Below are positions 4,169 to 24,160 of a stretch of DNA of 39,300 bases, one piece after another. The notes under the pieces were generated by a model. It searched no databases. It was not told the DNA's origin and saw nothing but the letters and a program-made list of their open reading frames with translations. The first letter of the stretch is position 1; each line of letters opens with the position of its first letter. The position numbers and the translations under genes are program-made. Where the stretch lies: the sequence record NC_047808.1, one strand, 5' to 3'. Source of the DNA: Escherichia phage vB_EcoP_F.

Positions 4169-4428
4169 CGCAGATGGACTTAGAGAAGTTCCTCTTGATG
4201 CTTGATACTGAGCGTGCTCGACTTATGCTTCAAGACTTGCGGGATGACACTAAGCGTTCACCTCAGCTCTACAACGCCATTGAGAAGCTGCTTGCTCGTC
4301 ACAACTTTGTGTTAAGTAAGGTGTCTGTGGACGAGAAGACGCTGGCTGATATGGAGGCCCTGAACGCAGAGTATGATAAGGTGCTTTCAGCGACTGAGGA
4401 TAATGACACAGGGTATGGTGTTCAATAA
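4165..4428 (+). CDS. terminase small subunit gp18
   Basis: 87 aa, size and position as T7 gp18; ATGA overlap with holin stop. Confidence 0.75.
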   Translation: MTQMDLEKFLLMLDTERARLMLQDLRDDTKRSPQLYNAIEKLLARHNFVLSKVSVDEKTLADMEALNAEYDKVLSATEDNDTGYGVQ

Positions 4429-4480
4429 GTGTTAGACTCAAGGTCATTACTATATGTAGTGGCCTTTATGGTTAACACTA
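4429..4480 (+). promoter_or_regulatory. candidate RNase III processing hairpin (R18.5 position) containing motif TAGACTCAAGGTCAT
   Basis: Imperfect inverted repeat GTGTTA..TAACAC enclosing the recurrent motif; intergenic, same relative position as T7 R18.5. Confidence 0.3.
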
Positions 4481-4529
4481 ACTAGTGGAGGCGACTCTAC
4501 GTGAAATCTGATAAACCGGGAGGGCAACT

Positions 4530-4979
4530 ATGCTCGAATTTTTAAAGAGAGCGGCTCCGTGGTTACTTGCAGCAGTGATGTTTGCTGGTGGCTACCACAC
4601 CGCTAACAATAAGTGGGAGGCTAAGGTCAATGCAGAATACACCTCGAATCTTAAGGCATCGGAGGATACAAGGCTTGCTGTCCAAGCTGAAGTCAACAAA
4701 GTGTCCAAACGGTTCCAGGACGAAATGTCCTCGTTGGAAGGCAGCACTGATAGGATTATTGCTGACCTTAAGTCTGACAATAAGCGGCTGCTCATCCGAG
4801 TCAAACCTACGAGTGGAACCACGCAAAGTGACGGTCGATGCTTCATTGATGGTTACGCCGAACTTGACGAACGAGATGCTAAACGTCTTATCGCCATCGG
4901 AGTGAAAGGAGACAAGTGGATTAAGGCCCTTCAAGACACTGTGAGAGCCTTACAGCAAGAGAAGGAGGTGACGCATTGA
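4530..4979 (+). CDS. Rz-like i-spanin gp18.5
   Basis: 149 aa; N-terminal TM segment ([12 protein letters not shown]) then coiled-coil-like region; GGGAGG RBS; position before large terminase. Confidence 0.75.
4630..4905 (+). CDS. Rz1-like o-spanin lipoprotein embedded in +1 frame of Rz
   Basis: Embedded ORF with signal/lipobox LTISGC (Cys codon 4789..4791), proline-rich C-terminus; ATG 4630 preceded by GGGAGG at 4615..4620; start uncertain (track uses TTG at 4582). Confidence 0.45.
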   Translation: MQNTPRILRHRRIQGLLSKLKSTKCPNGSRTKCPRWKAALIGLLLTLSLTISGCSSESNLRVEPRKVTVDASLMVTPNLTNEMLNVLSPSE

Positions 4980-6739
4980 GTAAAGACTTAGTGGCGCGTC
5001 AGGCGCTAATGACTGCCCGTATGAAGGCAGACTTCGTGTTCTTCCTGTTCGTCCTGTGGAAAGCTCTGTCACTCCCGGTCCCGACTCGCTGTCAGATTGA
5101 CATGGCGAAGAAACTATCGGCTGGCGACAACAGGCGTTTCATCCTACAGGCGTTCCGTGGTATCGGGAAGTCCTTCATTACGTGTGCATTCGTGGTCTGG
5201 AAACTATGGAACAACCCAGACTTGAAGTTCATGATTGTGTCGGCCTCAAAGGAACGAGCCGATGCGAACTCCATCTTCATCAAGCGAATCATCGACCTCA
5301 TGCCTCAGCTTAAGGAACTCAAACCTAAGCAGGGACAGCGAGATGCGGTTATCAGCTTCGACGTTGGACCAGCCAAGCCGGACCACTCACCTTCGGTTAA
5401 GTCCGTTGGTATCACTGGTCAGTTGACTGGTAGTCGTGCTGACATCCTGATTGCCGATGACGTGGAGGTTCCGAACAACTCAGCGACTCAGGCTGCACGA
5501 GACCGTCTGTCAGAGCTTGTGAAAGAGTTCGATGCTATCCTGAAGCCCGGAGGCACAATCATCTATCTGGGTACTCCTCAGAACGAGATGACCCTGTATC
5601 GTGAGCTGGAAGGTCGTGGGTACACCACTACTATCTGGCCTGCTCGTTATCCACGCGACAGGAAGGACTGGCAGTCTTACGGCGACCGTCTGGCTCCTAT
5701 GCTTCAGGCAGAACTGGAAGAGGACCCTGAGTCCTTCTACTGGCGTCCGACCGACGAGGTACGCTTCGATGATACGGACCTGAAGGAACGTGAGTTGTCA
5801 TATGGCAAGGCTGGCTTCGCTCTACAGTTCATGCTTAACCCGAACCTGAGTGATGCTGAGAAGTACCCTCTGAAGCTCCGTGACCTTATCGTAGCTGACT
5901 TGGACCCAGCGTCTAGCCCAATGGTCTACCAATGGCTTCCTAACCCTCAGAACAAGCGTGAGGACGTTCCTAACGTTGGACTCATGGGGGACTCATACCA
6001 CACGTATCAGACTGTAGGTTCTGCCTTCAGTTCGTACACCCAGAAGATTCTAGTCATTGACCCTAGTGGTCGTGGTAAGGATGAAACTGGTTATGCGGTA
6101 CTGTACCAGCTAAACGGCTACATCTTCGCTATGGAAGTTGGCGGTATGCGGGGCGGCTATGAAGACTCTACGCTGGAAGCCCTGGCTAAGATTGGTCGTA
6201 AGTGGAAGGTCAACGAATACGTAATTGAGGGTAACTTCGGTGATGGTATGTACCTTGAGCTATTCAAGCCTGTAGCTTCCCGTATTCATCCTGCTGCTGT
6301 AACTGAAGTGAAGAGTAAGGGTCAGAAGGAACTCCGCATCTGTGACGTTCTGGAGCCTATCATGGGGTCTCACCGACTTATCATCAACGCTGCTGCTATC
6401 GTCCAAGATTACCAGTCTGCCTCTGATAAGGATGGTGTTCGTAATCCTATCTACTCTCTCTTCTACCAGATGACACGTATCTCTCGTGAACGTGGAGCAT
6501 TGGCACACGATGACCGACTTGATGCGCTGGCTATCGGTGTACAGTTCTTCGTTGAGTCTATGGCGAAGGATGCCAACAAAGGCGAACGTGAAGTCACTGA
6601 GGAGTGGCTGGAAGAACAGATGGAGAACCCACGGAAAGGCTTCGAGTCCATCCACACTGAGTTCTGGGACAATGGGGTCCGGGTAACTCACGATACGGAC
6701 GACGAGCTTGGACTAGGGTCCTACGTTACGTTCCACTAG
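4976..6739 (+). CDS. terminase large subunit gp19
   Basis: 587 aa; strong similarity to recalled T7 gp19 from the first residues ([33 protein letters not shown]); apparent TTG start 4976 overlapping Rz stop, GAAGGAGG RBS upstream. Confidence 0.9.
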
Positions 6740-7356: not shown

Positions 7357-7447
7357 ACTGTAGTCAAGGACTTTAGGTAACACCTTAATAGAAGCTCACT
7401 TAGGGTCATCCTACTTATTGGTCCATCCTAGTGTCGCCTGACCTACG

Positions 7448-7490
7448 GTCCTTGACCTACAGTGGCTGTGGCCTACAGTAGTGACGATGA
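7448..7490 (+). repeat. short imperfect direct repeats (GACCTACGG / GACCTACAGTGG / GGCCTACAGTAG), right-end array
   Basis: Three CCTACAG-like units at about 14-bp spacing immediately before predicted terminus; analogous to T7 short-repeat array adjacent to terminal repeat. Confidence 0.3.
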
Positions 7491-7517
7491 GTTTTGGACC
7501 AAAAGTTTGAGACCACA

Positions 7518-7715
7518 TCTCACAGTTCAAGAACCTCAAGTCTCCCCATAGGCCCTCTTTAAGTCCAGACCAAAGGCCCTACCCAGTCTATCATAAGGCT
7601 GGACCGATGGTCGACGATAGGTCTAGGCTATGGCTGGAGGTCAGGACGATAGGTAGGGACTATTGGTCTGTCTCTGAGTCTCTATCTGTATAGTGATATA
7701 GTATAACATTACGTC
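7518..7715 (+). other. predicted physical genome terminus and terminal-repeat region (single collapsed copy); left end predicted at 7518
   Basis: TCTCACAGTTCAAGAACC..CCCCATAGG at 7518 resembles recalled T7/T3 left-terminal sequence (TCTCACAG..); non-coding; flanked by short-repeat arrays; right boundary not determinable. Confidence 0.3.
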
Positions 7716-7815
7716 CTACACCTACAGTCCTACACCTACAGTCCTACAACCTACAGTCCTACAACCTACAGTCACAACCATAAGACACCAACACCTACAG
7801 TCATAGACCTACAGT
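7716..7815 (+). repeat. array of imperfect short tandem repeats (unit approx CCTACA[A]CCTACAGT, 14-15 bp period)
   Basis: cctacacctacagtcctacacctacagtcctacaacctacagtcctacaacctacagtc.. seen directly; position equals T7 left-end short-repeat array. Confidence 0.5.
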
Positions 7816-8204: not shown

Positions 8205-8262
8205 CGACAGTGATTAACTACAGGGTCTTTGAGTCTACATCTGAAGGCCCTGACTGATAGTC
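8205..8262 (+). promoter_or_regulatory. candidate RNase III site/hairpin (AGTGATTAACTACAGG ... CCTGACTGATAGTCACTAAC), copy 1
   Basis: Imperfect inverted repeat; a near-identical copy precedes the ocr gene (8532..8590). Confidence 0.35.
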
Positions 8263-8284
8263 ACTAACTTAACGGATGGACACT

Positions 8285-8530
8285 ATGAAACACTTAAGCA
8301 CAATCACTAATCGCAATGAAGTATTCGTGAACACTAAAGGTTATGCGTGGATTCAGCTTAAAGAGATGACAGGAGCGCGTCACCGTGTGGTAGTGCGCAA
8401 GGTCTCAAGCAAGCCATTCAGCAACTACAGCGTAGATACTGTGCGTATAGACAACGAGACCTACCTGATAGACTCGCAGATAACCGTGAGTCTTACAGCG
8501 GGCGTCTCAGCTCCTTATTTCGCTAACTGA
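8285..8530 (+). CDS. hypothetical early protein (first gene downstream of host promoters)
   Basis: Track ORF 8276..8530; start moved to ATG 8285 with GGATGG RBS; no recognisable homolog. Confidence 0.45.
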   Translation: MKHLSTITNRNEVFVNTKGYAWIQLKEMTGARHRVVVRKVSSKPFSNYSVDTVRIDNETYLIDSQITVSLTAGVSAPYFAN

Positions 8531-8531
8531 G

Positions 8532-8590
8532 AGTGATTAACTACAGGTCGTTAGACTCATAGCGGCCTGACTGATAGTCACTAACATACA
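8532..8590 (+). promoter_or_regulatory. candidate RNase III site/hairpin, copy 2 (R0.3-like), upstream of ocr
   Basis: Repeat of the 8205..8262 element (AGTGATTAACTACAGG..GCCTGACTGATAGTCACTAAC). Confidence 0.35.
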
Positions 8591-8617: not shown

Positions 8618-8962
8618 ATGGAACGTAACGCTAACGCATACTATGAGCTGCTGGCTGCAACCGTTGAGCTGTTCAATGAGCGTATTCAGTACGACGAAAT
8701 AACTGAAGGCGATGATTATTATGATGCGCTGCATGAGGTCGTAGACGGTCAGGTTCCGCACTATTACCACGAGATTTTTACGGTGATGGCTGCTGATGGT
8801 ATAGACCACGAGTTCGAAGACTCTGGGCTGATGCCTGAGACCAAGGACGTAATGCGTATACTACAAGCTCGCATCTATGAGGCTCTGTATAACGATGTGT
8901 ATGATAGCTCGGATGTAGTCTGGTTCGAGGCTGAAGAGAGTGACGAGGAGGACTGCGAGTGA
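8618..8962 (+). CDS. ocr: Ocr-like DNA-mimic anti-restriction protein gp0.3
   Basis: 114 aa, acidic; strong match to recalled T7 gp0.3 (VPHYY..IF.VMA..GID.EFEDSGLMP.TKDV.RILQARIYE). Confidence 0.85.
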   Translation: MERNANAYYELLAATVELFNERIQYDEITEGDDYYDALHEVVDGQVPHYYHEIFTVMAADGIDHEFEDSGLMPETKDVMRILQARIYEALYNDVYDSSDVVWFEAEESDEEDCE

Positions 8963-9818: not shown

Positions 9819-12500
9819 ATGAGCGTCATCTCTATTGACAAACACGACTTCTCTGATGTGTCGAACGCCATTGAGCCGTTTAACCTGCTGGCCGACCACT
9901 ACGGGCAAGACCTTGCAGTCAAACAGCTTCAGCTTGAGCATGAGGCATACACTGAAGGCGAGCGACGTTTCATCAAAAACCTTGAGCGACAGACTGAGCG
10001 CGGGGAACTGGCAGACAATCAGGTCGCCAAGCCTTTGATGCAGACTCTGGTCCCTAAGATTGCGCAAGCCGTCAGGGAGTGGCATGAAGGTCCAGACGGG
10101 AAGCTGTCAACCTCTCGTCCTAGCGTAGCGTTCACCATGTTAAGCACTGAAGAGAAGGCCGTCAAGGACCGCTCTCTGCGTATCTCTTGCGAGTCTGCTG
10201 CGGTCATCATACTGAAGGTCATACTCTCCAAGCTGGTCAAGCCTGAAGGGATACCGATTACACCGATGGCCTCCGCGATAGGCCGCACACTTGAGGACGA
10301 AATCCGCTTCGGTCGCATCCGTGACAAAGAGAAAGAGCACTTCAAGAAGGCGATAGCTGATAACCTGAATAAGCGGGCCGGGGCGTCCTACAAGAAAGCC
10401 TACATGCAAGCGGTCGAGGCGTCCATGCTGGAGCAAGGCCAACTGGAAGATGCGTGGGGGACTTGGAGTCCTACAGAGGCTGTCCACGTTGGCATCAAGA
10501 TGCTTGAGATTGTCATCCAGTCAACACAACTGGTCGAGCTTAAGCGGTACGGTGCTGGCAATGCAGCGGCTGACGTAGAGATGGTCCACCTGTCGGACTT
10601 CTGGGTCAAGAAGATGGCACAACGAGGATTCAGCCTTGCGGGTATCGCTCCAGTCTACCAGCCTTGCGTCGTTCCACCTAAGCCGTGGACTGGTGTCGTA
10701 GGTGGTGGGTACTGGGCCAAAGGTCGCAGACCGTTACCATTGATTCGCTTAGGGTCTAAGTCTGCGGTAGCACGTTATGAAGACGTGTACATGCCTGAAG
10801 TCTATGACGCTGTGAACATCATCCAAAATACACCTTGGAAAGTGAACAAGGAGGTATTGGACGTGGTGAACATGGTCGAGAAGCTGAACAACACGCCTAT
10901 TGATGACATCCCTCAGATGGAACCGCTGAAGCCTGAGGACTATGCTGGTGAGACCGAGGAGGAACTCAAGGCATGGAAGAAGGCTGCTGCTGGTATCTAT
11001 CGCCGCGAGAAGGCCAGACAGTCACGCAGATTATCACTGAGCTTTATCGTTAACCAAGCAAACAAGTTCTCTCAGTTCAAGGCCATCTGGTTCCCGTACA
11101 ACATGGATTGGCGAGGTCGTGTCTACGCTGTCCCGATGTTCAACCCTCAGGGTAACGACATGCAGAAGGGTCTCCTGACTCTGGCAGTCGGCAAGCCTAT
11201 TGGTGCTGACGGTTTCAAATGGCTGAAGGTCCACGGTGCAAACTGTGCGGGTGTCGATAAAGTCACCTTCGAGGAGCGCATCAAGTGGGTGGAAGACAAC
11301 CACGAAAACATCATGGCTGCTGCTAAGGCACCGATGGATAGTATTGAGTGGTGGGGCAAGTTAGACTCTCCGTTCTGTTTCCTCGCGTTCTGCTTCGAGT
11401 ATGCTGGCGTAATGCACCACGGCCTGTCTTACTCCTGCTCGCTGCCGATAGCGTTCGATGGGTCCTGCTCTGGTATTCAGCACTTCAGTGCGATGCTTCG
11501 TGACCACATCGGTGGACATGCAGTAAACCTGACGCCATCCGGTAAGGTACAAGACATCTACCGCATTGTGTCTGACCGCATTGAGGAGGAGCTTAAAGTC
11601 CTGCTGATTAACGGTACTGACAACGAGATGGTCACTCACGAGGATAAGAAAACTGGTGAGATTACCGAACGTATCAAGCTGGGGACACGAGAGCTGGCCC
11701 GTCAGTGGCTGACATACGGTATGTCACGCAAGGTCACTAAGCGTTCAGTCATGACTCTGGCATACGGGTCGAAAGAGTACGGCTTCGCAGACCAAGTTTA
11801 CGAGGACATCGTGATGCCAGCGATTGACTCAGGGTCTGGCGCTATGTTCACCGAGCCGAGCCAAGCGTCTCGCTTCATGGCTAAGATGATTTGGGAAGCT
11901 GTGAGCGTGACCGTAGTTGCTGCGGTTGACGCGATGAAGTGGCTTCAGGGTGCTGCCAAGCTGCTGGCTGCTGAAGTGAAGGACAAGAAGACTGGAGAAA
12001 TCCTGAAGCCTTGCCTTCCGGTACACTGGGTAACACCTGATGGTTTCCCGGTCTGGCAGGAATACCGCAAGAAGGATACCACTCGTCTGAATCTGATGTT
12101 CTTAGGGTCATTCAACCTTCAACCTACGGTCAACAAAGGCATGAAGAAAGAGCTGGACAAGCACAAGCAGGAGTCAGGCATTAGCCCGAACTTCGTCCAC
12201 TCACAAGATGGTAGCCACCTACGCAAGACTGTAGTCCACACGCATCGCAAGTATGGCGTGATGTCATTCGCAGTGATTCATGATAGCTTCGGGACCATCC
12301 CGGCTGACGCTGAATATCTGTTCCGTGGTGTCCGTGAGACGATGGTCGAGACCTACCGCGACAACGATGTGCTGCTTGACTTCTACGAGCAGTTTGAATA
12401 CCAGCTTCACGAGAGCCAGCGCGATAAGTTGCCTGAGCTTCCGAAGAAAGGTAAACTGAATATCGAAGACATCTTGTCTTCAGACTTTGCATTCGCTTAA
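9819..12500 (+). CDS. single-subunit DNA-directed RNA polymerase gp1
   Basis: 893 aa vs T7 RNAP 883 aa; conserved motifs e.g. HDSFGT, YGVMSFAVIHDSFGTIP, C-terminal FAFA. Confidence 0.95.
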   Translation: MSVISIDKHDFSDVSNAIEPFNLLADHYGQDLAVKQLQLEHEAYTEGERRFIKNLERQTERGELADNQVAKPLMQTLVPKIAQAVREWHEGPDGKLSTSRPSVAFTMLSTEEKAVKDRSLRISCESAAVIILKVILSKLVKPEGIPITPMASAIGRTLEDEIRFGRIRDKEKEHFKKAIADNLNKRAGASYKKAYMQAVEASMLEQGQLEDAWGTWSPTEAVHVGIKMLEIVIQSTQLVELKRYGAGNAAADVEMVHLSDFWVKKMAQRGFSLAGIAPVYQPCVVPPKPWTGVVGGGYWAKGRRPLPLIRLGSKSAVARYEDVYMPEVYDAVNIIQNTPWKVNKEVLDVVNMVEKLNNTPIDDIPQMEPLKPEDYAGETEEELKAWKKAAAGIYRREKARQSRRLSLSFIVNQANKFSQFKAIWFPYNMDWRGRVYAVPMFNPQGNDMQKGLLTLAVGKPIGADGFKWLKVHGANCAGVDKVTFEERIKWVEDNHENIMAAAKAPMDSIEWWGKLDSPFCFLAFCFEYAGVMHHGLSYSCSLPIAFDGSCSGIQHFSAMLRDHIGGHAVNLTPSGKVQDIYRIVSDRIEEELKVLLINGTDNEMVTHEDKKTGEITERIKLGTRELARQWLTYGMSRKVTKRSVMTLAYGSKEYGFADQVYEDIVMPAIDSGSGAMFTEPSQASRFMAKMIWEAVSVTVVAAVDAMKWLQGAAKLLAAEVKDKKTGEILKPCLPVHWVTPDGFPVWQEYRKKDTTRLNLMFLGSFNLQPTVNKGMKKELDKHKQESGISPNFVHSQDGSHLRKTVVHTHRKYGVMSFAVIHDSFGTIPADAEYLFRGVRETMVETYRDNDVLLDFYEQFEYQLHESQRDKLPELPKKGKLNIEDILSSDFAFA

Positions 12501-17342: not shown

Positions 17343-17558
17343 ATGATTAAACTTATCGAATTTCTTGGTCGTCTGGTGGTGCGTGGTTATCGTCGTGCTG
17401 CGGTACTGGAACGAAAGGTAGAAAAGAAGACTGCGGACGGTGCGGCTGATGCTGCTGCTCTGGCTGACAAGCTGACCATCGCGTCACTGGAAGCTGGCAT
17501 GAAGGCTCGTCAGGCTGATACCAAAGCTGACCAATTGGCTCAGTTCTTCAAAGCCTAA
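17343..17558 (+). CDS. hypothetical protein, 71 aa
   Basis: AGGGAG RBS; predicted helical/basic; identity not established. Confidence 0.5.
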   Translation: MIKLIEFLGRLVVRGYRRAAVLERKVEKKTADGAADAAALADKLTIASLEAGMKARQADTKADQLAQFFKA

Positions 17559-17576
17559 ACTATCACCTTAGGGATG
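17554..17576 (+). promoter_or_regulatory. divergent phage-promoter-like sequence CCTAAACTATCACCTTAGGGATG (two core mismatches)
   Basis: Upstream half identical to consensus; -4/-3 differ. Confidence 0.35.
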
Positions 17577-19550: not shown

Positions 19551-19856
19551 ATGTTACGAAAACTTAAAGCTCGCTACCATCGGTTCATGTACAAATGGTG
19601 GAGTGACGAAGCAACCTGCCTGTCCAACATTCTGGGAGACCAAAGGTTCGAAGGCGTGGGGAGGGTAAAGCTCGCTACCATCGGTTCATGTACAAATGGT
19701 GGAGTGACGAAGCAACCTGCCTGTCCAACATTCTGGGAGACCAAAGGTTCGACTCCGAGGCGTGGAAGAGAGCTAACCGGAAGTTTATGTATCACTTCTT
19801 GCGTACAGACTTCTAGGTCTAGACTCAAGGTCATTCATAGCGAGTGGCCTGTATGA
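19551..19856 (+). CDS. hypothetical protein ORF altered by an internal 101-bp tandem duplication (gene 4.x region)
   Basis: GGAGGG RBS before ATG 19551; reading passes through repeat copy 1 in one frame and copy 2 in another. Confidence 0.3.
   Translation: MLRKLKARYHRFMYKWWSDEATCLSNILGDQRFEGVGRVKLATIGSCTNGGVTKQPACPTFWETKGSTPRRGRELTGSLCITSCVQTSRSRLKVIHSEWPV
19565..19766 (+). repeat. tandem direct duplication, period 101 bp, 87 bp identical (19565..19651 = 19666..19752)
   Basis: Seen directly: TAAAGCTCGCTACCATCGGTTCATGTACAAATGGTGGAGTGACGAAGCAACCTGCCTGTCCAACATTCTGGGAGACCAAAGGTTCGA twice. Confidence 0.85.
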
Positions 19857-19880: not shown

Positions 19881-22052
19881 ATGTTTGACTTTAAGAGTAT
19901 CTGGGGTTCTGACATCGAGACCAACGGTCTCCTTGATACAGTCTCCCAGTTTCACTGTGGGGTCCTGATTAACGCCGAGTCGAATGAGACCCTTAAGTAT
20001 GGGGTAGCTCCGATGGTCGGTATCGTCGGCGGCTTCAAAGAGTATGTTCATAAAGTGGAAGAGATTGCCGCATCACCTGATGGTATGCTGGTATTCCATA
20101 ACGGTATCAACTATGACGTCCCGGCTATAGACAAGCTGAAGCGTTTGTACTTTGGGAAACGCTTTAACTTCCCGAAACATAAGATGATTGATACCTTGGT
20201 GCTGGGACGCTTGATGTATCCAAACATTAAGTTCTCAGACATGGGCGCAGTGAAAGCTGGTCGTCTGCCACCTAAGATGATGGGACGCCAGTCTCTTGAG
20301 GCTTGGGGCTATCGTCTCGGTGAGATGAAAGGTGAGTACAAACACGATTACGTTGCCAAGTGCAAGGCTGAAGGTATCGAATATAAGGCTGGGGACGAAT
20401 GGTTGTTCCCGTCTCAGGAGATGCTGGACTATAACGTTCAAGACGTTGTGGTCACACTGGCGTTGTTCAAGAAGTTCCTGACTGACAAGTATTACTTCCA
20501 GTCTGAACAGTTCGCTTTCGACCAGATTTATGCGTTGCGTCTGGAACATGATGCTGCGTGGACCTGTGCGAAGATGGAACGTAACGGCTATCCGATGAAC
20601 ACCGAGATGGTCGAAGGTTTATATCGTGAACTCACCGTCAAACGTGCAGAGCTGCTGGACAAGCTGCGTTCGACTTTCGGCAGCTGGTACGCACCAAAGG
20701 GAGGCAAGGAGTTCTTCAAGCACCCACGGACAGGCAAGGACCTTCCGAAGTATCCGCGCGTCGTGTATCCTAAGGTCGGGTCAGTATTCAAGAAGCCGAA
20801 GAACAAAGCTCAACGCTTAGGTCTGGAGCCTTGCGAGTTCGACTCACGAGACACGATGGAGGGAGCGCCGTTCACACCTATCACTTACGTTGAGTTTAAT
20901 CCGGGAAGCGGGGACCACTTAGCGAAAGTTCTGATGGAGCGTGGCTGGGAGCCTGTGGACTTCACTGACACCGGGAAACCTGTAGTCGATGACGAGACGT
21001 TGGAACACGTTAAGTTACCAGACGCAGAGGCTCAGGCTTGCGTAGAGCTGGTCCGTGAATATCTGGTGGTCCAGAAGCGCATCGGTCAGGCTGCTGAAGG
21101 TAAGAACGCATGGTTGAAACTTGTAGGTCCAGACGGGCGTATGCACGGTTCAATCAACCCATGCGGGGCAGTAACCGGACGTGCGACTCACAGTTCACCA
21201 AACATGGCTCAGGTCCCGGCTAACGGTGCTCCATACGGTGAGACTTGCCGTGGTGCTTTCGGTGCAGCGTGGAACAAGAAGGACGGTACGCCAGACCCTT
21301 GGATTCAAGTAGGCGTGGATGCTTCAGGTCTTGAGCTTCGTTGTCTGGGGAACCGAGCGGCTCCGTTTGATGGTGGCGCCTATGCGAAGACTGTGGTCGA
21401 AGGTGACATCCACTGGGCCAACGCAGTCAACGCTGGGTTAGCACCTAACGTCCCACGCAATAAGTCCAGCCACGACCATGATGCTTTCCGTAACAACGCT
21501 AAGACGTTCATCTATGCGTTCCTATATGGTGCAGGGGCCGCGAAGATTGGACTGATAGTTGGCGGTGGTAAGAAGGAAGGTGCTGCCCTGATGAAGAAAT
21601 TCATTGAGGGTACACCAGCTATTAAAGACCTCAGGGAAGCTGTGAGTAATACGTTAATCTCCGAATCCAAATGGGTAGATGGAGAGAACATCGTGAAGTG
21701 GAAACGTCGCTGGCTGAAAGGTCTGGATGGTCGCCGTATCCACATCCGGTCTCCACACTCAGCACTAAACGCATTACTTCAAGGCGATGGTGCGGTTGTC
21801 TGTAAGCACTGGATTGTAGAGACTGAACGTATGCTTGAAGAGGCAGGGTATGTTCACGGCTGGGAGGGGGACTTCGCGTACATGGCCTGGGTTCACGACG
21901 AATTGCAGATTGCGTGCCGTACTCAGGAGATTGCCGAAGAAGTCGTCAAGATTGCTCAACTTGCTATGCGTAAGGTGGGTGAGTTCTATAACTTTAAATG
22001 TGTCCTTGATACCGAAGGTAAGATTGGACCAACGTGGAAGGAGTGTCACTAA
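19881..22052 (+). CDS. DNA polymerase gp5 (family A, with 3'-5' exonuclease)
   Basis: 723 aa; position and size as T7 gp5; GGAGG RBS. Confidence 0.95.
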   Translation: MFDFKSIWGSDIETNGLLDTVSQFHCGVLINAESNETLKYGVAPMVGIVGGFKEYVHKVEEIAASPDGMLVFHNGINYDVPAIDKLKRLYFGKRFNFPKHKMIDTLVLGRLMYPNIKFSDMGAVKAGRLPPKMMGRQSLEAWGYRLGEMKGEYKHDYVAKCKAEGIEYKAGDEWLFPSQEMLDYNVQDVVVTLALFKKFLTDKYYFQSEQFAFDQIYALRLEHDAAWTCAKMERNGYPMNTEMVEGLYRELTVKRAELLDKLRSTFGSWYAPKGGKEFFKHPRTGKDLPKYPRVVYPKVGSVFKKPKNKAQRLGLEPCEFDSRDTMEGAPFTPITYVEFNPGSGDHLAKVLMERGWEPVDFTDTGKPVVDDETLEHVKLPDAEAQACVELVREYLVVQKRIGQAAEGKNAWLKLVGPDGRMHGSINPCGAVTGRATHSSPNMAQVPANGAPYGETCRGAFGAAWNKKDGTPDPWIQVGVDASGLELRCLGNRAAPFDGGAYAKTVVEGDIHWANAVNAGLAPNVPRNKSSHDHDAFRNNAKTFIYAFLYGAGAAKIGLIVGGGKKEGAALMKKFIEGTPAIKDLREAVSNTLISESKWVDGENIVKWKRRWLKGLDGRRIHIRSPHSALNALLQGDGAVVCKHWIVETERMLEEAGYVHGWEGDFAYMAWVHDELQIACRTQEIAEEVVKIAQLAMRKVGEFYNFKCVLDTEGKIGPTWKECH

Positions 22053-22210
22053 TGGCTAAAACTTATAGTGAGCAGGAGGTCAAAGACCTGATGCGGTCAG
22101 CTTGGTGGTGTGGACACGAGGAGTCTCGTTATAGTCCAAACCTCAGTGGTTCATGCAGTCAAGACATTCATGAAATCCTGAAAGAACATAACGAAGAAGG
22201 AGAAGGCTAA
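22052..22210 (+). CDS. hypothetical protein, 52 aa
   Basis: TAATG overlap with gene 5 stop; GGAAGGAG RBS; own translation MAKTYSEQEVKDLMRSAWWCGHEESRYSPNLSGSCSQDIHEILKEHNEEGEG. Confidence 0.45.
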   Translation: MAKTYSEQEVKDLMRSAWWCGHEESRYSPNLSGSCSQDIHEILKEHNEEGEG

Positions 22211-22500
22211 TGGCTATTACTAAACGTATGCGAGTTTCATTCTCGCTTGGCGCTGTACTGTCTACTGAAGAAGTTGAGCACTTCAAGAAGTCTCTCTGTG
22301 AGTTGAGCCGTAAGGTTCTCAATGGTGAGAAGACCACTGGCTTCGAGCGTAAGATGGTCGAGGTCGGCGTTACAGATGGTCTGGAAGCTGTGGTAGAGCT
22401 TGTCTTTAAGAAGGGTATTGTTGATGGTCTGAAAGAAGACCTGAGTCATTATGCTGACAAGCCCAGCTTCGGAGACTTCCGAGTGGAGTTCAAGCAATGA
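22210..22500 (+). CDS. gp5.5-like protein (T7 gp5.5 binds H-NS)
   Basis: 96 aa; N-terminus MAITKRMRVSF resembles recalled T7 gp5.5; TAATG coupling. Confidence 0.5.
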   Translation: MAITKRMRVSFSLGAVLSTEEVEHFKKSLCELSRKVLNGEKTTGFERKMVEVGVTDGLEAVVELVFKKGIVDGLKEDLSHYADKPSFGDFRVEFKQ

Positions 22501-22706
22501 GTGAATACTTACGGGTCCTAGCGGCCCTTAAGTCCTGCCCGAAGACCTTCCAGTCCAACTATGTGCGCAACAACGCTGCACTTGTGGCTGAGGCTGCGAG
22601 TCGTGGACATCTAAGCTGCCTGTCTATGGATGGGCGTAACAACGGTGCGTGGGAGATTACCGCTGAAGGCACCAAGTTCCTGAACCAACACGGAGGCTGT
22701 CTATGA
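22497..22706 (+). CDS. gp5.7-like protein
   Basis: 69 aa; LKSCPKTFQSNYVRNNAALVAEAASRGH matches recalled T7 gp5.7. Confidence 0.6.
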   Translation: MSEYLRVLAALKSCPKTFQSNYVRNNAALVAEAASRGHLSCLSMDGRNNGAWEITAEGTKFLNQHGGCL

Positions 22707-23152
22707 AGATACCTGAAAGTCTGAAAGAGCTGGTCCTTGAAATGGGTGAGTGCGAGATGACGCACCGTAAGTATGCTGAGTTCTACGCATCTTGGTCTTA
22801 CACCCTGACCGAGAAGGACGTTGAGTCCTACACCGAGTCTCCTTCTGAGGCTTATGAGTGGAGTCCGTTCATCGGACTGACCATCGTAGCTAGCGGTATG
22901 TGGGATGACAGCTACGGCTCAGAGGTAAACGACTGGGACGTGTACCGCCAAGTTGAGAAGGAGACCGAAATGTCTTCCAACTTCTGGAGCCTGATGTCCC
23001 ACCTCAACTCAGATGACAACGACATGGCCCATGAGTTCGCCAACAAATGGCTGAAGCCTGAGGTGACTCTGGAACGTATTGAGGAGCCTAAAGTTCCCTT
23101 GATGCCATATGCAGTCGCTATGGCTACAGGAGGTCTGGACGATGGGTGCTGA
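22703..23152 (+). CDS. hypothetical acidic Trp-rich protein, 149 aa, at gene 5.9 position
   Basis: Track ORF; ATGA coupling; no resemblance to the 52-aa T7 gp5.9. Confidence 0.5.
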   Translation: MKIPESLKELVLEMGECEMTHRKYAEFYASWSYTLTEKDVESYTESPSEAYEWSPFIGLTIVASGMWDDSYGSEVNDWDVYRQVEKETEMSSNFWSLMSHLNSDDNDMAHEFANKWLKPEVTLERIEEPKVPLMPYAVAMATGGLDDGC

Positions 23153-24011
23153 GAAGAAGATAGCTCTTGTTCTTGATGGCGATTACCTAGTATTCTCTTC
23201 TATGGCTGCTGCCGAGGACGAGACAGACTGGGGTGATGACATCTGGACCCTTATCTGCGACCACGAGAAGGCTCGCCGTATCCTTGAGAACACCATCGCT
23301 GAAATCGTTAAGAAGCGCAAGGCGTGGAAAGACGCTAAGATTGTGATGTGCTTTACTGATGATAACAACTGGCGTAAGGACGTTTTGCCTACCTATAAGG
23401 CTAACCGTAAGGGTTCTCGCAAGCCTGTAGGTTACAAGAAGTTCGTAGCCGAAGTGATGGCTGACCCACGGTTCAACAGCTTCCTGCGTCCAACGCTTGA
23501 GGGTGATGATTGTATGGGTATCATCGGGACCAGACCTCAGATTGTCGGATGCGACCATGCGGTGCTGGTGTCCTGCGATAAGGACTTCAAGACCATCCCG
23601 AACTGTGAGTTCTTCTGGTTAACCACTGGTGAAATCCTGAGTCATACGACTTCCGAGGCAGACTACTGGCACATGGAGCAGACCATCAAGGGTGACACTA
23701 CAGATGGCTACGGCGGTATTCCGGGGATGGGTGAGGACACCACTCGTGCATTCCTTGACGAACCGTATTACTTCGTGCAGGAGAGCCGCGAGCTTAAGAC
23801 TGGCAAGAACAAAGGCCAGATTAAGACTGAGTGGAAGAAGTATCCGAAGCGTGAAGACATGACGCTGTGGGACTGCATGGTTACACTGGCTGCTAAGGCT
23901 GGCATGACCGAGGAGGAACTTCTGGTCCAAGCTCAGGTCGCTCGTATTTGTCGAGCATCTGACTATGACCCTAAGTCCAAGGAGGTCATCCTATGGACAC
24001 CATCCATGTAA
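23142..24011 (+). CDS. 5'-3' exonuclease gp6
   Basis: Start set to ATG 23142 (AGGAGG RBS); LVLDGDYLVFSSMAAAE resembles T7 gp6 N-terminus. Confidence 0.9.
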   Translation: MGAEKKIALVLDGDYLVFSSMAAAEDETDWGDDIWTLICDHEKARRILENTIAEIVKKRKAWKDAKIVMCFTDDNNWRKDVLPTYKANRKGSRKPVGYKKFVAEVMADPRFNSFLRPTLEGDDCMGIIGTRPQIVGCDHAVLVSCDKDFKTIPNCEFFWLTTGEILSHTTSEADYWHMEQTIKGDTTDGYGGIPGMGEDTTRAFLDEPYYFVQESRELKTGKNKGQIKTEWKKYPKREDMTLWDCMVTLAAKAGMTEEELLVQAQVARICRASDYDPKSKEVILWTPSM

Positions 24012-24085: not shown

Positions 24086-24137
24086 GTCTAGCCGATAGTC
24101 ATATCCTATCAATCCAACAGTCATCCATAGGTGAAAC

Positions 24138-24160
24138 ACTAAACTATCACTATAGGGACT
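24138..24160 (+). promoter_or_regulatory. phage RNA polymerase promoter (phi6.5 position), ACTAAACTATCACTATAGGGACT
   Basis: Full consensus, GGG start (late class). Confidence 0.75.

Follow-up and report, generated by a model that had tools for sequence, protein, structure and literature searches.

The acidic protein of 149 residues encoded at positions 22703-23152 (plus strand) of Escherichia phage vB_EcoP_FFK3 (ON548433.1) is the product of a real gene that is under purifying but relaxed selection and that forms a clean cassette between the gp5.7 gene and gene 6. The window that we analyzed is the whole stretch of 39,300 bp that makes up the FFK3 genome, which belongs to the Kayfunavirus group (K1F-like) within the Studiervirinae. 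Our preferred explanation, which we put forward tentatively and at a little below an even chance when taken as a whole, is that this open reading frame (hereafter ORF149) would be a genuine, non-essential accessory cassette in a hypervariable slot of a K1F-like phage of the T7 group, and that it would encode an acidic protein that inhibits, or serves as a decoy for, a host DNA-processing or defense protein in a stoichiometric manner. We consider this the most economical reading because the gene is under selection, because it is a cassette in a hotspot, because its product is acidic and lacks a catalytic motif, because its neighbors are nuclease and takeover genes, and because a homolog appears to be dispensable.

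ORF149 is annotated in GenBank as a ‘hypothetical protein’ (UTQ72534.1) and runs from an ATG start to a TGA stop at 23150-23152. An earlier note, made from the letters of the sequence alone, had described an acidic, Trp-rich ORF at the position of T7 gene 5.9 that is coupled to gp5.7 and overlaps the start of the exonuclease, and our analysis agrees with this description. The ORF is located between genes 5.7 and 6, and its product (17.2 kDa) has a computed pI of 4.26 and a net charge of -19 (-0.13 per residue), with 30 Asp and Glu residues versus 11 Lys and Arg residues. Only the Ocr-like protein and one 59-aa ORF have a lower pI in the FFK3 genome. Six Trp residues (4.0%) account for the reported Trp-richness, although this property (5–7 Trp) is specific to the Kayfunavirus clade, with members of other clades containing 1–5.

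The upstream junction (22692-22706, plus strand), as read from the sequence, comprises a GGAGG Shine-Dalgarno motif within the region encoding the gp5.7 C-terminus, a 6-nt spacer, and an ATGA in which the start codon of ORF149 overlaps the stop codon of gp5.7. The downstream junction (23129-23152, plus strand) is borne by the cassette itself and comprises a second GGAGG, an 8-nt spacer, and the annotated ATG of gene 6 at 23142, with the final 11 nt of ORF149 overlapping gene 6. Both flanks are conserved anchors of the hotspot. The upstream flank (22497-22706, plus strand) encodes a gp5.7 homolog with 77% identity to T7 gp5.7 (E = 3e-36; phrog_1334), and the downstream flank (23142-24011, plus strand) is gene 6, which encodes a FEN-type 5'-3' exonuclease (PF02739, E = 5.8e-9; phrog_107, E = 3e-80). 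The latter carries the label ‘DNA polymerase I’ in the sequence record.

A comparison of five Kayfunavirus orthologs yielded a dN/dS of ~0.18 for ORF149, with gp5.7 and the exonuclease at 0.07 and 0.045, respectively; dN was 0.044 for ORF149 versus 0.008 for gp5.7 and 0.018 for the exonuclease. The dN/dS of 0.18 indicates that ORF149 is subject to purifying selection and yet evolves faster than its neighbors. Homologs were identified in 172 phage records. Collectively, these records, the dN/dS value, and a fold that is confidently predicted for residues 1–128 indicate that ORF149 is more than a chance ORF.

The nearest upstream promoter for the phage RNA polymerase (17548-17572, plus strand; consensus CCTAAACTATCACTATAGG) belongs to an 11-copy repeat family (D1) and heads a DNA-metabolism unit of the class II type. 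This unit comprises the primase-helicase, DNA polymerase, 5.5, 5.7, ORF149, and gene 6, and its end is marked by the next phage promoter downstream of gene 6 (24132-24156, plus strand), which is a member of the same repeat family and the positional equivalent of T7 phi6.5. Between positions 21800 and 24400, no terminator and no excess of sigma-70-like promoters were detected. ORF149 would be co-transcribed and translationally coupled with the genes of DNA metabolism, and its product would act while phage DNA is undergoing replication and recombination. The takeover genes identified in FFK3 encode Ocr-like (8618-8962), gp1.2-like, gp2-like, gp5.5-like, and gp5.7-like proteins. A tblastn search of the whole window did not detect a homolog of gp5.9, with the best match at E = 3.1.

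In K1F, the gp5.7 gene is joined directly to gene 6 via the same GGAGG…ATGA junction and the ORF149 gene is absent, which points in the same direction as the dispensability of a distant homolog described below. The insert in FFK3 is precise: the start of ORF149 reuses the K1F-type junction, and a second copy of the junction is provided for gene 6. To describe the slot more broadly, we surveyed the 80 IMG/VR genomes that were nearest by gp5.7 sequence, comprising 21 Kayfuna-like genomes and 59 remaining genomes. The slot was empty in 23 of the 80 genomes and held a member of the ORF149 family in nine; otherwise it held one of four other, unrelated cassettes. Among the Kayfuna-like genomes, nine carried cassette C1, seven had an empty slot, and five carried the ORF149 family, while cassettes C2, C3, and C4 were each found in none of the 21. 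Among the remaining genomes, C1 was present in 22, the slot was empty in 16, and the ORF149 family was present in four; C2 (basic, 58–78 aa) was found in 13, C3 (very acidic, 53–73 aa, pI 4.05) in five, and C4 in two, with these counts exceeding 59 because three genomes hold two cassettes.

Such double occupancy is also evident in the Przondovirus record IME321, where a C2-type ORF (basic, 58 aa) comes directly after the ORF149-family gene. This suggests that the ORF caller probably under-counted C2 in genomes where the slot was scored as holding the ORF149 family only. In Citrobacter phages of the K1F-like group, the slot holds a 92-aa, K11-like ORF. Homologs of gp5.9 were identified in 187 records, and these were confined to phages with T7-, T3-, or Yersinia-type names and a few phages of Serratia, Salmonella, and Shigella. 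At least five alternative cassettes occupy the 5.7/6 junction, with T7 gp5.9 representing a sixth in its own clade. Since the slot is empty or variously occupied between conserved flanks in related genomes, we consider it a genuine accessory hotspot, with variable content between conserved core genes as understood by Silas et al. (2023).

ORF149 is a full-length match to phrog_4382 (E = 1.2e-48, 165.5 bits; residues 1–130 on profile positions 6–129 of 130), a PHROG without an assigned function. When 1.84 billion representative proteins were searched with a profile, only 47 representatives were recovered at E ≤ 1e-3, and the family was widened to relatives of 100–117 aa and to genes of Felixounavirus and Mooglevirus; a pattern scan for the short subfamily was built on eight sequences. 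The family is small and specific to phages, and a plasmid collection contained no homolog of ORF149. Homology to a protein of known, unrelated function, which the earlier note had named as evidence against its proposal, was not credibly detected in searches of Pfam, NCBIfam, PADLOC, PHROG, and the PDB. The best match in Pfam was to SLT_L (E = 0.21) and the NCBIfam search of ORF149 returned nothing, while PADLOC returned PDC-M02B (E = 0.004) for only one of three homologs; we treated the Pfam and PADLOC matches as chance. Sequence and fold searches of the PDB (copy to April 2026) yielded zero matches to the family, and matches among the predicted viral structures of BFVD were to uncharacterized members of the family only.

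Acidity is a property of all 66 family members (pI 4.15–4.92; net charge -7 to -19) and is maintained down to ~20% identity. Across these members, conservation extends to only ~8 positions (E13, an acidic position 20, K23, G58, G65, D69, G72, and E74), and the H21 and R22 residues that precede K23 are not kept in the Providencia, Jarilo, and Eluna clades. Given so few conserved positions and the loss of H21-R22 in some clades, we find no convincing catalytic signature. An interpretation of H21-R22-K23 as a catalytic or ligand-binding motif was dropped, with K23 being the only one of the three that is conserved across clades. Approximately five acidic columns are positionally conserved in the family, which is compatible with mimicry being either present or absent.

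Structural prediction was conducted on a single chain using AlphaFold2 and a 30-sequence alignment. The resulting model (overall pLDDT 79.8, pTM 0.62) is confident for residues 1–128, with the pLDDT of 10-residue blocks ranging from 80 to 94 up to residue 120 and falling to 69 for residues 121–130. The predicted layout comprises a helix (residues 5–14), two long beta-hairpins (16–34 and 59–86) with two short helices between them, a helical hairpin (89–116), and a strand (120–125). Three parts can be distinguished in the model and alignments. The N-terminal core (residues 1–88; 22703-22966, plus strand) was predicted with a pLDDT of 87–94 for residues 1–80 and 80 for residues 81–90, holds all of the conserved positions, and is common to every family member, with profile matches covering positions 1–90 only. 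Relatives of 100–117 aa comprise this core alone, with the helical hairpin swapped for a PE-x-(I/V)P-A-H-T segment. The second part (residues 89–128; 22967-23086, plus strand) comprises the helical hairpin and one beta-strand (helices 89–100 and 103–116, strand 120–125; pLDDT 80–83), carries the motif LMSHLN(S/A)EDN-MA-EF, and is present in alignments of the Studiervirinae and Ounavirinae clades.

The third part is a tail (residues 129–149; 23087-23149, plus strand) that is predicted to be disordered (pLDDT < 50) and is specific to the Kayfuna and Jarilo clades. The C-terminal residues ‘MATGGLDDG’ are apparently conserved; however, the nucleotides that specify the final T-G-G-L-D-D-G-C also form the ribosome-binding site and start codon of gene 6, which indicates that their conservation is at least partly attributable to a dual-coding constraint. 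We considered whether the acidic tail (GGLDDGC, with DDGF or DDDF in relatives) mimics the C-terminal tails with which gp2.5 and gp4 bind T7 DNA polymerase. This idea was rejected because the ribosome-binding site and start codon of gene 6 dictate these residues, because the terminal residue is variable, and because most clades lack the tail. Taken together, ORF149 is best explained as a small, soluble, strongly acidic protein with a predicted alpha+beta fold and no enzyme signature, a description that forms part of the same tentative whole.

Small acidic accessory proteins encoded in phage counter-defense hotspots are a known kind, and ORF149 fits among them. The closest counterpart by location is T7 gp5.9, a proven DNA mimic of RecBCD (PMC9836394). 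The two share an identical slot between 5.7 and 6, an overlap with the start of gene 6, the status of an accessory gene (putatively non-essential in the case of ORF149), and a similar charge density (-0.14 per residue for the ORF149 core versus -0.15 for gp5.9). In contrast, ORF149 comprises 149 aa and has neither the size (about 52–60 aa) nor the solved fold of gp5.9. So far, the two have been found in separate phage clades. The earlier note had further considered the ORF to be unrelated to gp5.9, and this was borne out by blastp (E = 4.4), by an hhalign comparison of the 30-sequence profile (probability of 0.27%), and by the score of gp5.9 against an HMM built from Studiervirinae only (-0.7 bits).

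Other known inhibitors are likewise separated from ORF149 by sequence or fold. Lambda Gam, an acidic and predominantly alpha-helical dimer that mimics DNA ends, and P22 Abc2, which acts on RecC with the host protein PpiB (PMC9836394), resemble ORF149 in being small accessory proteins encoded beside the phage’s own recombination exonuclease or recombinase, but neither is similar to it in sequence or fold. No significant structural match was obtained to Ocr, Ugi, Arn, ArdA, or acidic anti-CRISPRs. The Ocr-like protein of FFK3 is also more extreme in charge (-0.24 per residue) and is already encoded elsewhere in the genome. Alpha+beta roll proteins of the cystatin/NTF2-like type, which include inhibitors and immunity proteins, are among the closest known systems that can be named. 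ORF149 shares position, charge, and accessory status with gp5.9 and Gam and falls outside both families on the grounds of homology and fold. The suggestion in the earlier note that an acidic protein at this locus could be a DNA mimic or nuclease inhibitor was supported in part, and the small size and strong negative charge of ORF149 are features of the DNA-mimic class.

We infer that ORF149 would act stoichiometrically, binding and blocking a host DNA-processing or defense protein either in the manner of a DNA mimic or as a decoy. In lambda, gam adjoins exo. By analogy with this arrangement and with that of 5.9 and gene 6 in T7, the leading candidate for the target would be a DNA-end-processing nuclease of the RecBCD type, in which case ORF149 would be a functional analog, rather than a homolog, of gp5.9 or lambda Gam. 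This step is speculative, and we regard RecBCD as a rather unlikely target. Counted in support of an inhibitor are the placement of distant relatives directly before non-homologous nuclease genes, the gp4.5-like and gp5.7-like takeover genes that neighbor relatives of ORF149, and the absence of gp5.9 from FFK3, as well as the dispensability of the Bas63 homolog in two strains and its proximity to validated counter-defense genes. Counted against it are a fold that is unlike those of known mimics, an adjacency to gene 6 that partly reflects the location of the hotspot, and a context in the Ounavirinae of nucleotide metabolism rather than recombination.

The genomic context of distant relatives bears on the inhibitor reading and on whether ORF149 might act on the phage itself. 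Przondovirus, Jarilovirus, Elunavirus, a Providencia phage, and a metagenomic T7-like contig all have an ORF149-family gene directly upstream of the gene for a FEN-type exonuclease; in the contig, the two genes upstream of the ORF149-family gene encode a gp4.5-like protein (TA/Lon inhibitor) and a gp5.7-like protein. In environmental phages of ~85–105 kb, a T7-like family A DNA polymerase is encoded 4–5 kb upstream of the ORF149-family gene, which in turn lies 0–3 kb upstream of a nuclease gene and overlaps it in two loci (L012 and L014). The nuclease in these phages combines an N-terminal HTH, common to both types, with either an RNase-H-like domain (PF13482) or a metallophosphoesterase domain. 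Relatives of ORF149 are accordingly found upstream of three non-homologous nuclease types (FEN, RNase-H-like, and metallophosphoesterase). An HNH endonuclease (phrog_1985) adjoins the ORF149-family gene in nearly all of the ~90-kb phage loci, and in one contig (L038) the two are read through as an HNH-family ORF.

These arrangements are consistent with an alternative in which ORF149 is an accessory factor of the phage’s own DNA metabolism that modulates, chaperones, or temporarily inhibits the adjacent phage nuclease or acts on the replisome. Translational coupling to a downstream nuclease in many lineages, the nearly constant HNH neighbor together with the read-through ORF, and the location of the gene within the DNA-metabolism transcription unit all favor this possibility. 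However, the slot is empty in K1F and in at least seven of the 21 Kayfuna-like genomes, and in the four related genomes that were compared the exonucleases are 96–99% identical to that of FFK3. Since related genomes without ORF149 encode such similar exonucleases, the exonuclease does not need ORF149, which is therefore unlikely to serve gp6 as a dedicated partner. Furthermore, a specific protein partner is hard to square with nucleases drawn from at least three unrelated superfamilies, and an adjoining nuclease is lacking in the Ounavirinae. The fusion was observed in a single contig, where the ORF149-family ORF retains its own ribosome-binding site and ATG. We therefore consider an own-metabolism role to be improbable, at roughly one chance among several.

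In the Ounavirinae (Mooglevirus, Suspvirus, and Felixounavirus), the ORF149-family gene is located among small ORFs between nrdD and nrdG. The homolog in Bas63 is g71 (bas63_0071; E = 6e-13 against the Studiervirinae-only HMM), which lies upstream of g77, g79, and g80 at a distance of six to nine genes; these three were validated in PhageMaP as counters of retron Ec67 and NAD+-depleting systems. In the two strain tables of PhageMaP that were analyzed, the fitness of g71 knock-outs ranged from +0.5 to +1.0 in S17 and from +0.56 to +2.06 in the TerY-P strain, which suggests that g71 is dispensable to Bas63 in these two strains. The PhageMaP authors also reported a recombinant fraction of ~30% for Bas63 versus ~2% for T7 and proposed that this may stem from the lack of an inhibitor of RecBCD. 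Bas63 nevertheless carries a homolog of ORF149, which is a counter-point to RecBCD as the target.

The context in Bas63 raises another alternative, namely that ORF149 is a counter-defense or takeover protein that works by a different mechanism, acting on a non-nuclease system or host factor (such as an SMC complex, a nucleoid protein, or a restriction-like system) or as a sponge for a signaling nucleotide via K23 and aromatic residues. The hotspot location and accessory behavior of the gene are equally in keeping with this, as are the proximity of the Ounavirinae homologs to NAD+-reconstitution and anti-retron genes and the presence of conserved basic and aromatic residues (H21-R22-K23, F28, and W67) amid an otherwise acidic protein. 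T7 gp5.9 itself also inhibits MukBEF (PMC7617805). Against this alternative, H21 and R22 are not kept in the three clades named above, and the PDB fold search returned no chain that is similar to ORF149. Likewise, the supplements on accessory genes (Silas et al., 2023) and on anti-defense genes (EVADES) contained no peptide-motif match to the family, and the text of PhageMaP names neither g71 nor gp71 as a counter or trigger, with no phenotype given on the 12 defense strains analyzed. We judge this alternative to be doubtful.

A far less probable reading, to which we assign very little weight, is that ORF149 is a structural or enzymatic protein, as a few database labels would have it, or a non-functional, hitch-hiking ORF. 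Single homologs in Citrobacter phage HP1, Klebsiella phage SH-Kp 152410, and Shigella phage Henu12 carry the labels ‘tail tube protein’, ‘baseplate hub assembly protein’, and ‘putative DNA methylase’, and a PhageMaP table tags g71 of Bas63 as ‘tail tube protein*’. These three labels contradict one another, however, and almost all remaining records read ‘hypothetical’. Neither Pfam nor PHROG returned a structural or methylase match, and the gene is located in the DNA-metabolism region, outside of the virion module. In the two PhageMaP tables, knock-outs of g71 are fit whereas g103, which is likewise tagged ‘tail tube protein*’, comes out as essential, and the cryo-EM paper on the Bas63 virion makes no mention of g71 or gp71. 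Given the contradictory labels, the differing fitness of g71 and g103, and the absence of g71 from the cryo-EM paper, we regard these three database names as annotation errors. A non-functional ORF is countered by purifying selection and deep conservation.

Small accessory proteins of phage hotspots are a major source of novel inhibitors that act on bacterial immunity and DNA repair, with T7 gp5.9 being a textbook example at this junction. If ORF149 is such an inhibitor, it would represent a new structural class, it would show how Felix-O1-like phages and those T7-like phages that lack gp5.9 handle host nucleases or defenses, and it could trigger systems of the guard type, for example retron Ec48, which guards RecBCD. 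A bolder and, in our estimation, unlikely extension is that the family constitutes a previously unrecognized fold among the nuclease inhibitors or DNA decoys of phages. It would have accompanied the exonuclease of the replication module since ancient times, persisting while the exonuclease was swapped (FEN, RNase-H-like, or metallophosphoesterase), and would have spread horizontally to Felix-O1-like phages. Were this to be true, the family could supply the missing Gam/gp5.9 analog of Kayfuna-, Przondo-, Jarilo-, Eluna-, Moogle-, and Felixouna-viruses, and its target would be RecBCD or a different host DNA-end nuclease or defense hub that is conserved. If ORF149 has no such role, it would count as a further conserved ORFan, and this work would be of value mainly for its clean description of the 5.7/6 hotspot. 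The family occurs widely among phages of therapeutic type that infect E. coli K1, Klebsiella, Salmonella, Shigella, and Citrobacter, and the Felixounavirus cluster alone comprises 803 sequences at 90% identity.

The junction between the gp5.7 homologue and the gene 6 exonuclease was found to carry several unrelated alternative cassettes in addition to the phrog_4382-like family that is represented by the acidic 149-aa protein. Among the 80 genomes surveyed for the content of this slot (L055-L134), the most frequent occupant was cluster C1, which encodes proteins of 68-123 aa. A second cluster, C3, was identified in five of these genomes, all of them T7-like phages from IMG/VR, and encodes an extremely acidic protein (53-73 aa, pI 4.05) with the C-terminus GDEEEEDDE. 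Comparison by BLAST with gp5.9, the RecBCD inhibitor that occupies the slot in T7, indicated that the C3 protein is not gp5.9. It is a further candidate DNA mimic, encoded in the same hotspot as the phrog_4382-family cassette. Another small acidic ORF of FFK3 (22052-22210; 52 aa, pI 4.79, 3.8% Trp) follows the DNA polymerase gene and precedes the gp5.5 homologue, at roughly the position where T7 encodes the gene 5.3 homing endonuclease. It belongs to phrog_20928, a PHROG without assigned function, and is the poorest-aligning part of the region when compared to other Kayfunavirus records.

In environmental phage contigs of 85-105 kb (L012, L014, and L016-L038), one conserved nuclease slot was identified downstream of the family gene. 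The catalytic domain of the encoded nuclease is either RNase-H-like (PF13482) or a metallophosphoesterase, and both types keep an N-terminal HTH of ~70 aa that is 35-46% identical between them. This indicates that the catalytic domain has been swapped behind a common HTH. In one contig of this set (L038; IMGVR_UViG_3300018412_000021, 4395-5342), an HNH endonuclease ORF (phrog_1985) lacks a stop codon and continues into the family ORF, yielding a read-through product of 315 aa, while the family part retains its own AAGGAG and ATG. Because only one such case was found, the read-through may be due to loss of the stop codon and need not represent a genuine fusion.

Several annotations in and around the family look wrong. 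The FFK3 record names the gp5.7 homologue (22497-22706) 'HNS binding protein', but the Pfam and PHROG families of the H-NS inhibitor Gp5.5 match the adjoining ORF (22210-22500). The same record names the gene 6 exonuclease (23142-24011) 'DNA polymerase I', and 'tail tube protein' is applied to the family homologue in Citrobacter phage vB_CbrM_HP1 and, in the PhageMaP knock-out fitness table, to the Bas63 homologue g71. The record of Pantoea phage vB_PagP-SK1 (MN450150.1) leaves the family gene that precedes the exonuclease (L006, 2495-2872) unannotated, and a minus-strand CDS placed over the same DNA (QFR42368.1, 16386-16664) is probably a mis-call.

Upstream of the Ocr-like gene, an array built from 14-nt CCTACACCTACAGT-like units and two repeat pairs ~320 nt apart were detected at 7436-7815 and 8206-8588. 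Together with the starts of the RNA polymerase gene at 9819 and of a 1064-aa ORF at 646, these repeats suggest that the deposited FFK3 record is a circular permutation of the T7 gene order and that the physical genome ends probably lie near 7-8 kb. Elsewhere, part of the intergenic gap between the end of the primase-helicase gene (19517) and the start of the DNA polymerase gene (19881) is filled by a tandem repeat (19565-19765) comprising two copies of a 100-nt unit that are 94% identical and spaced 101 nt from start to start, which could be either a real duplication or an artefact of assembly.
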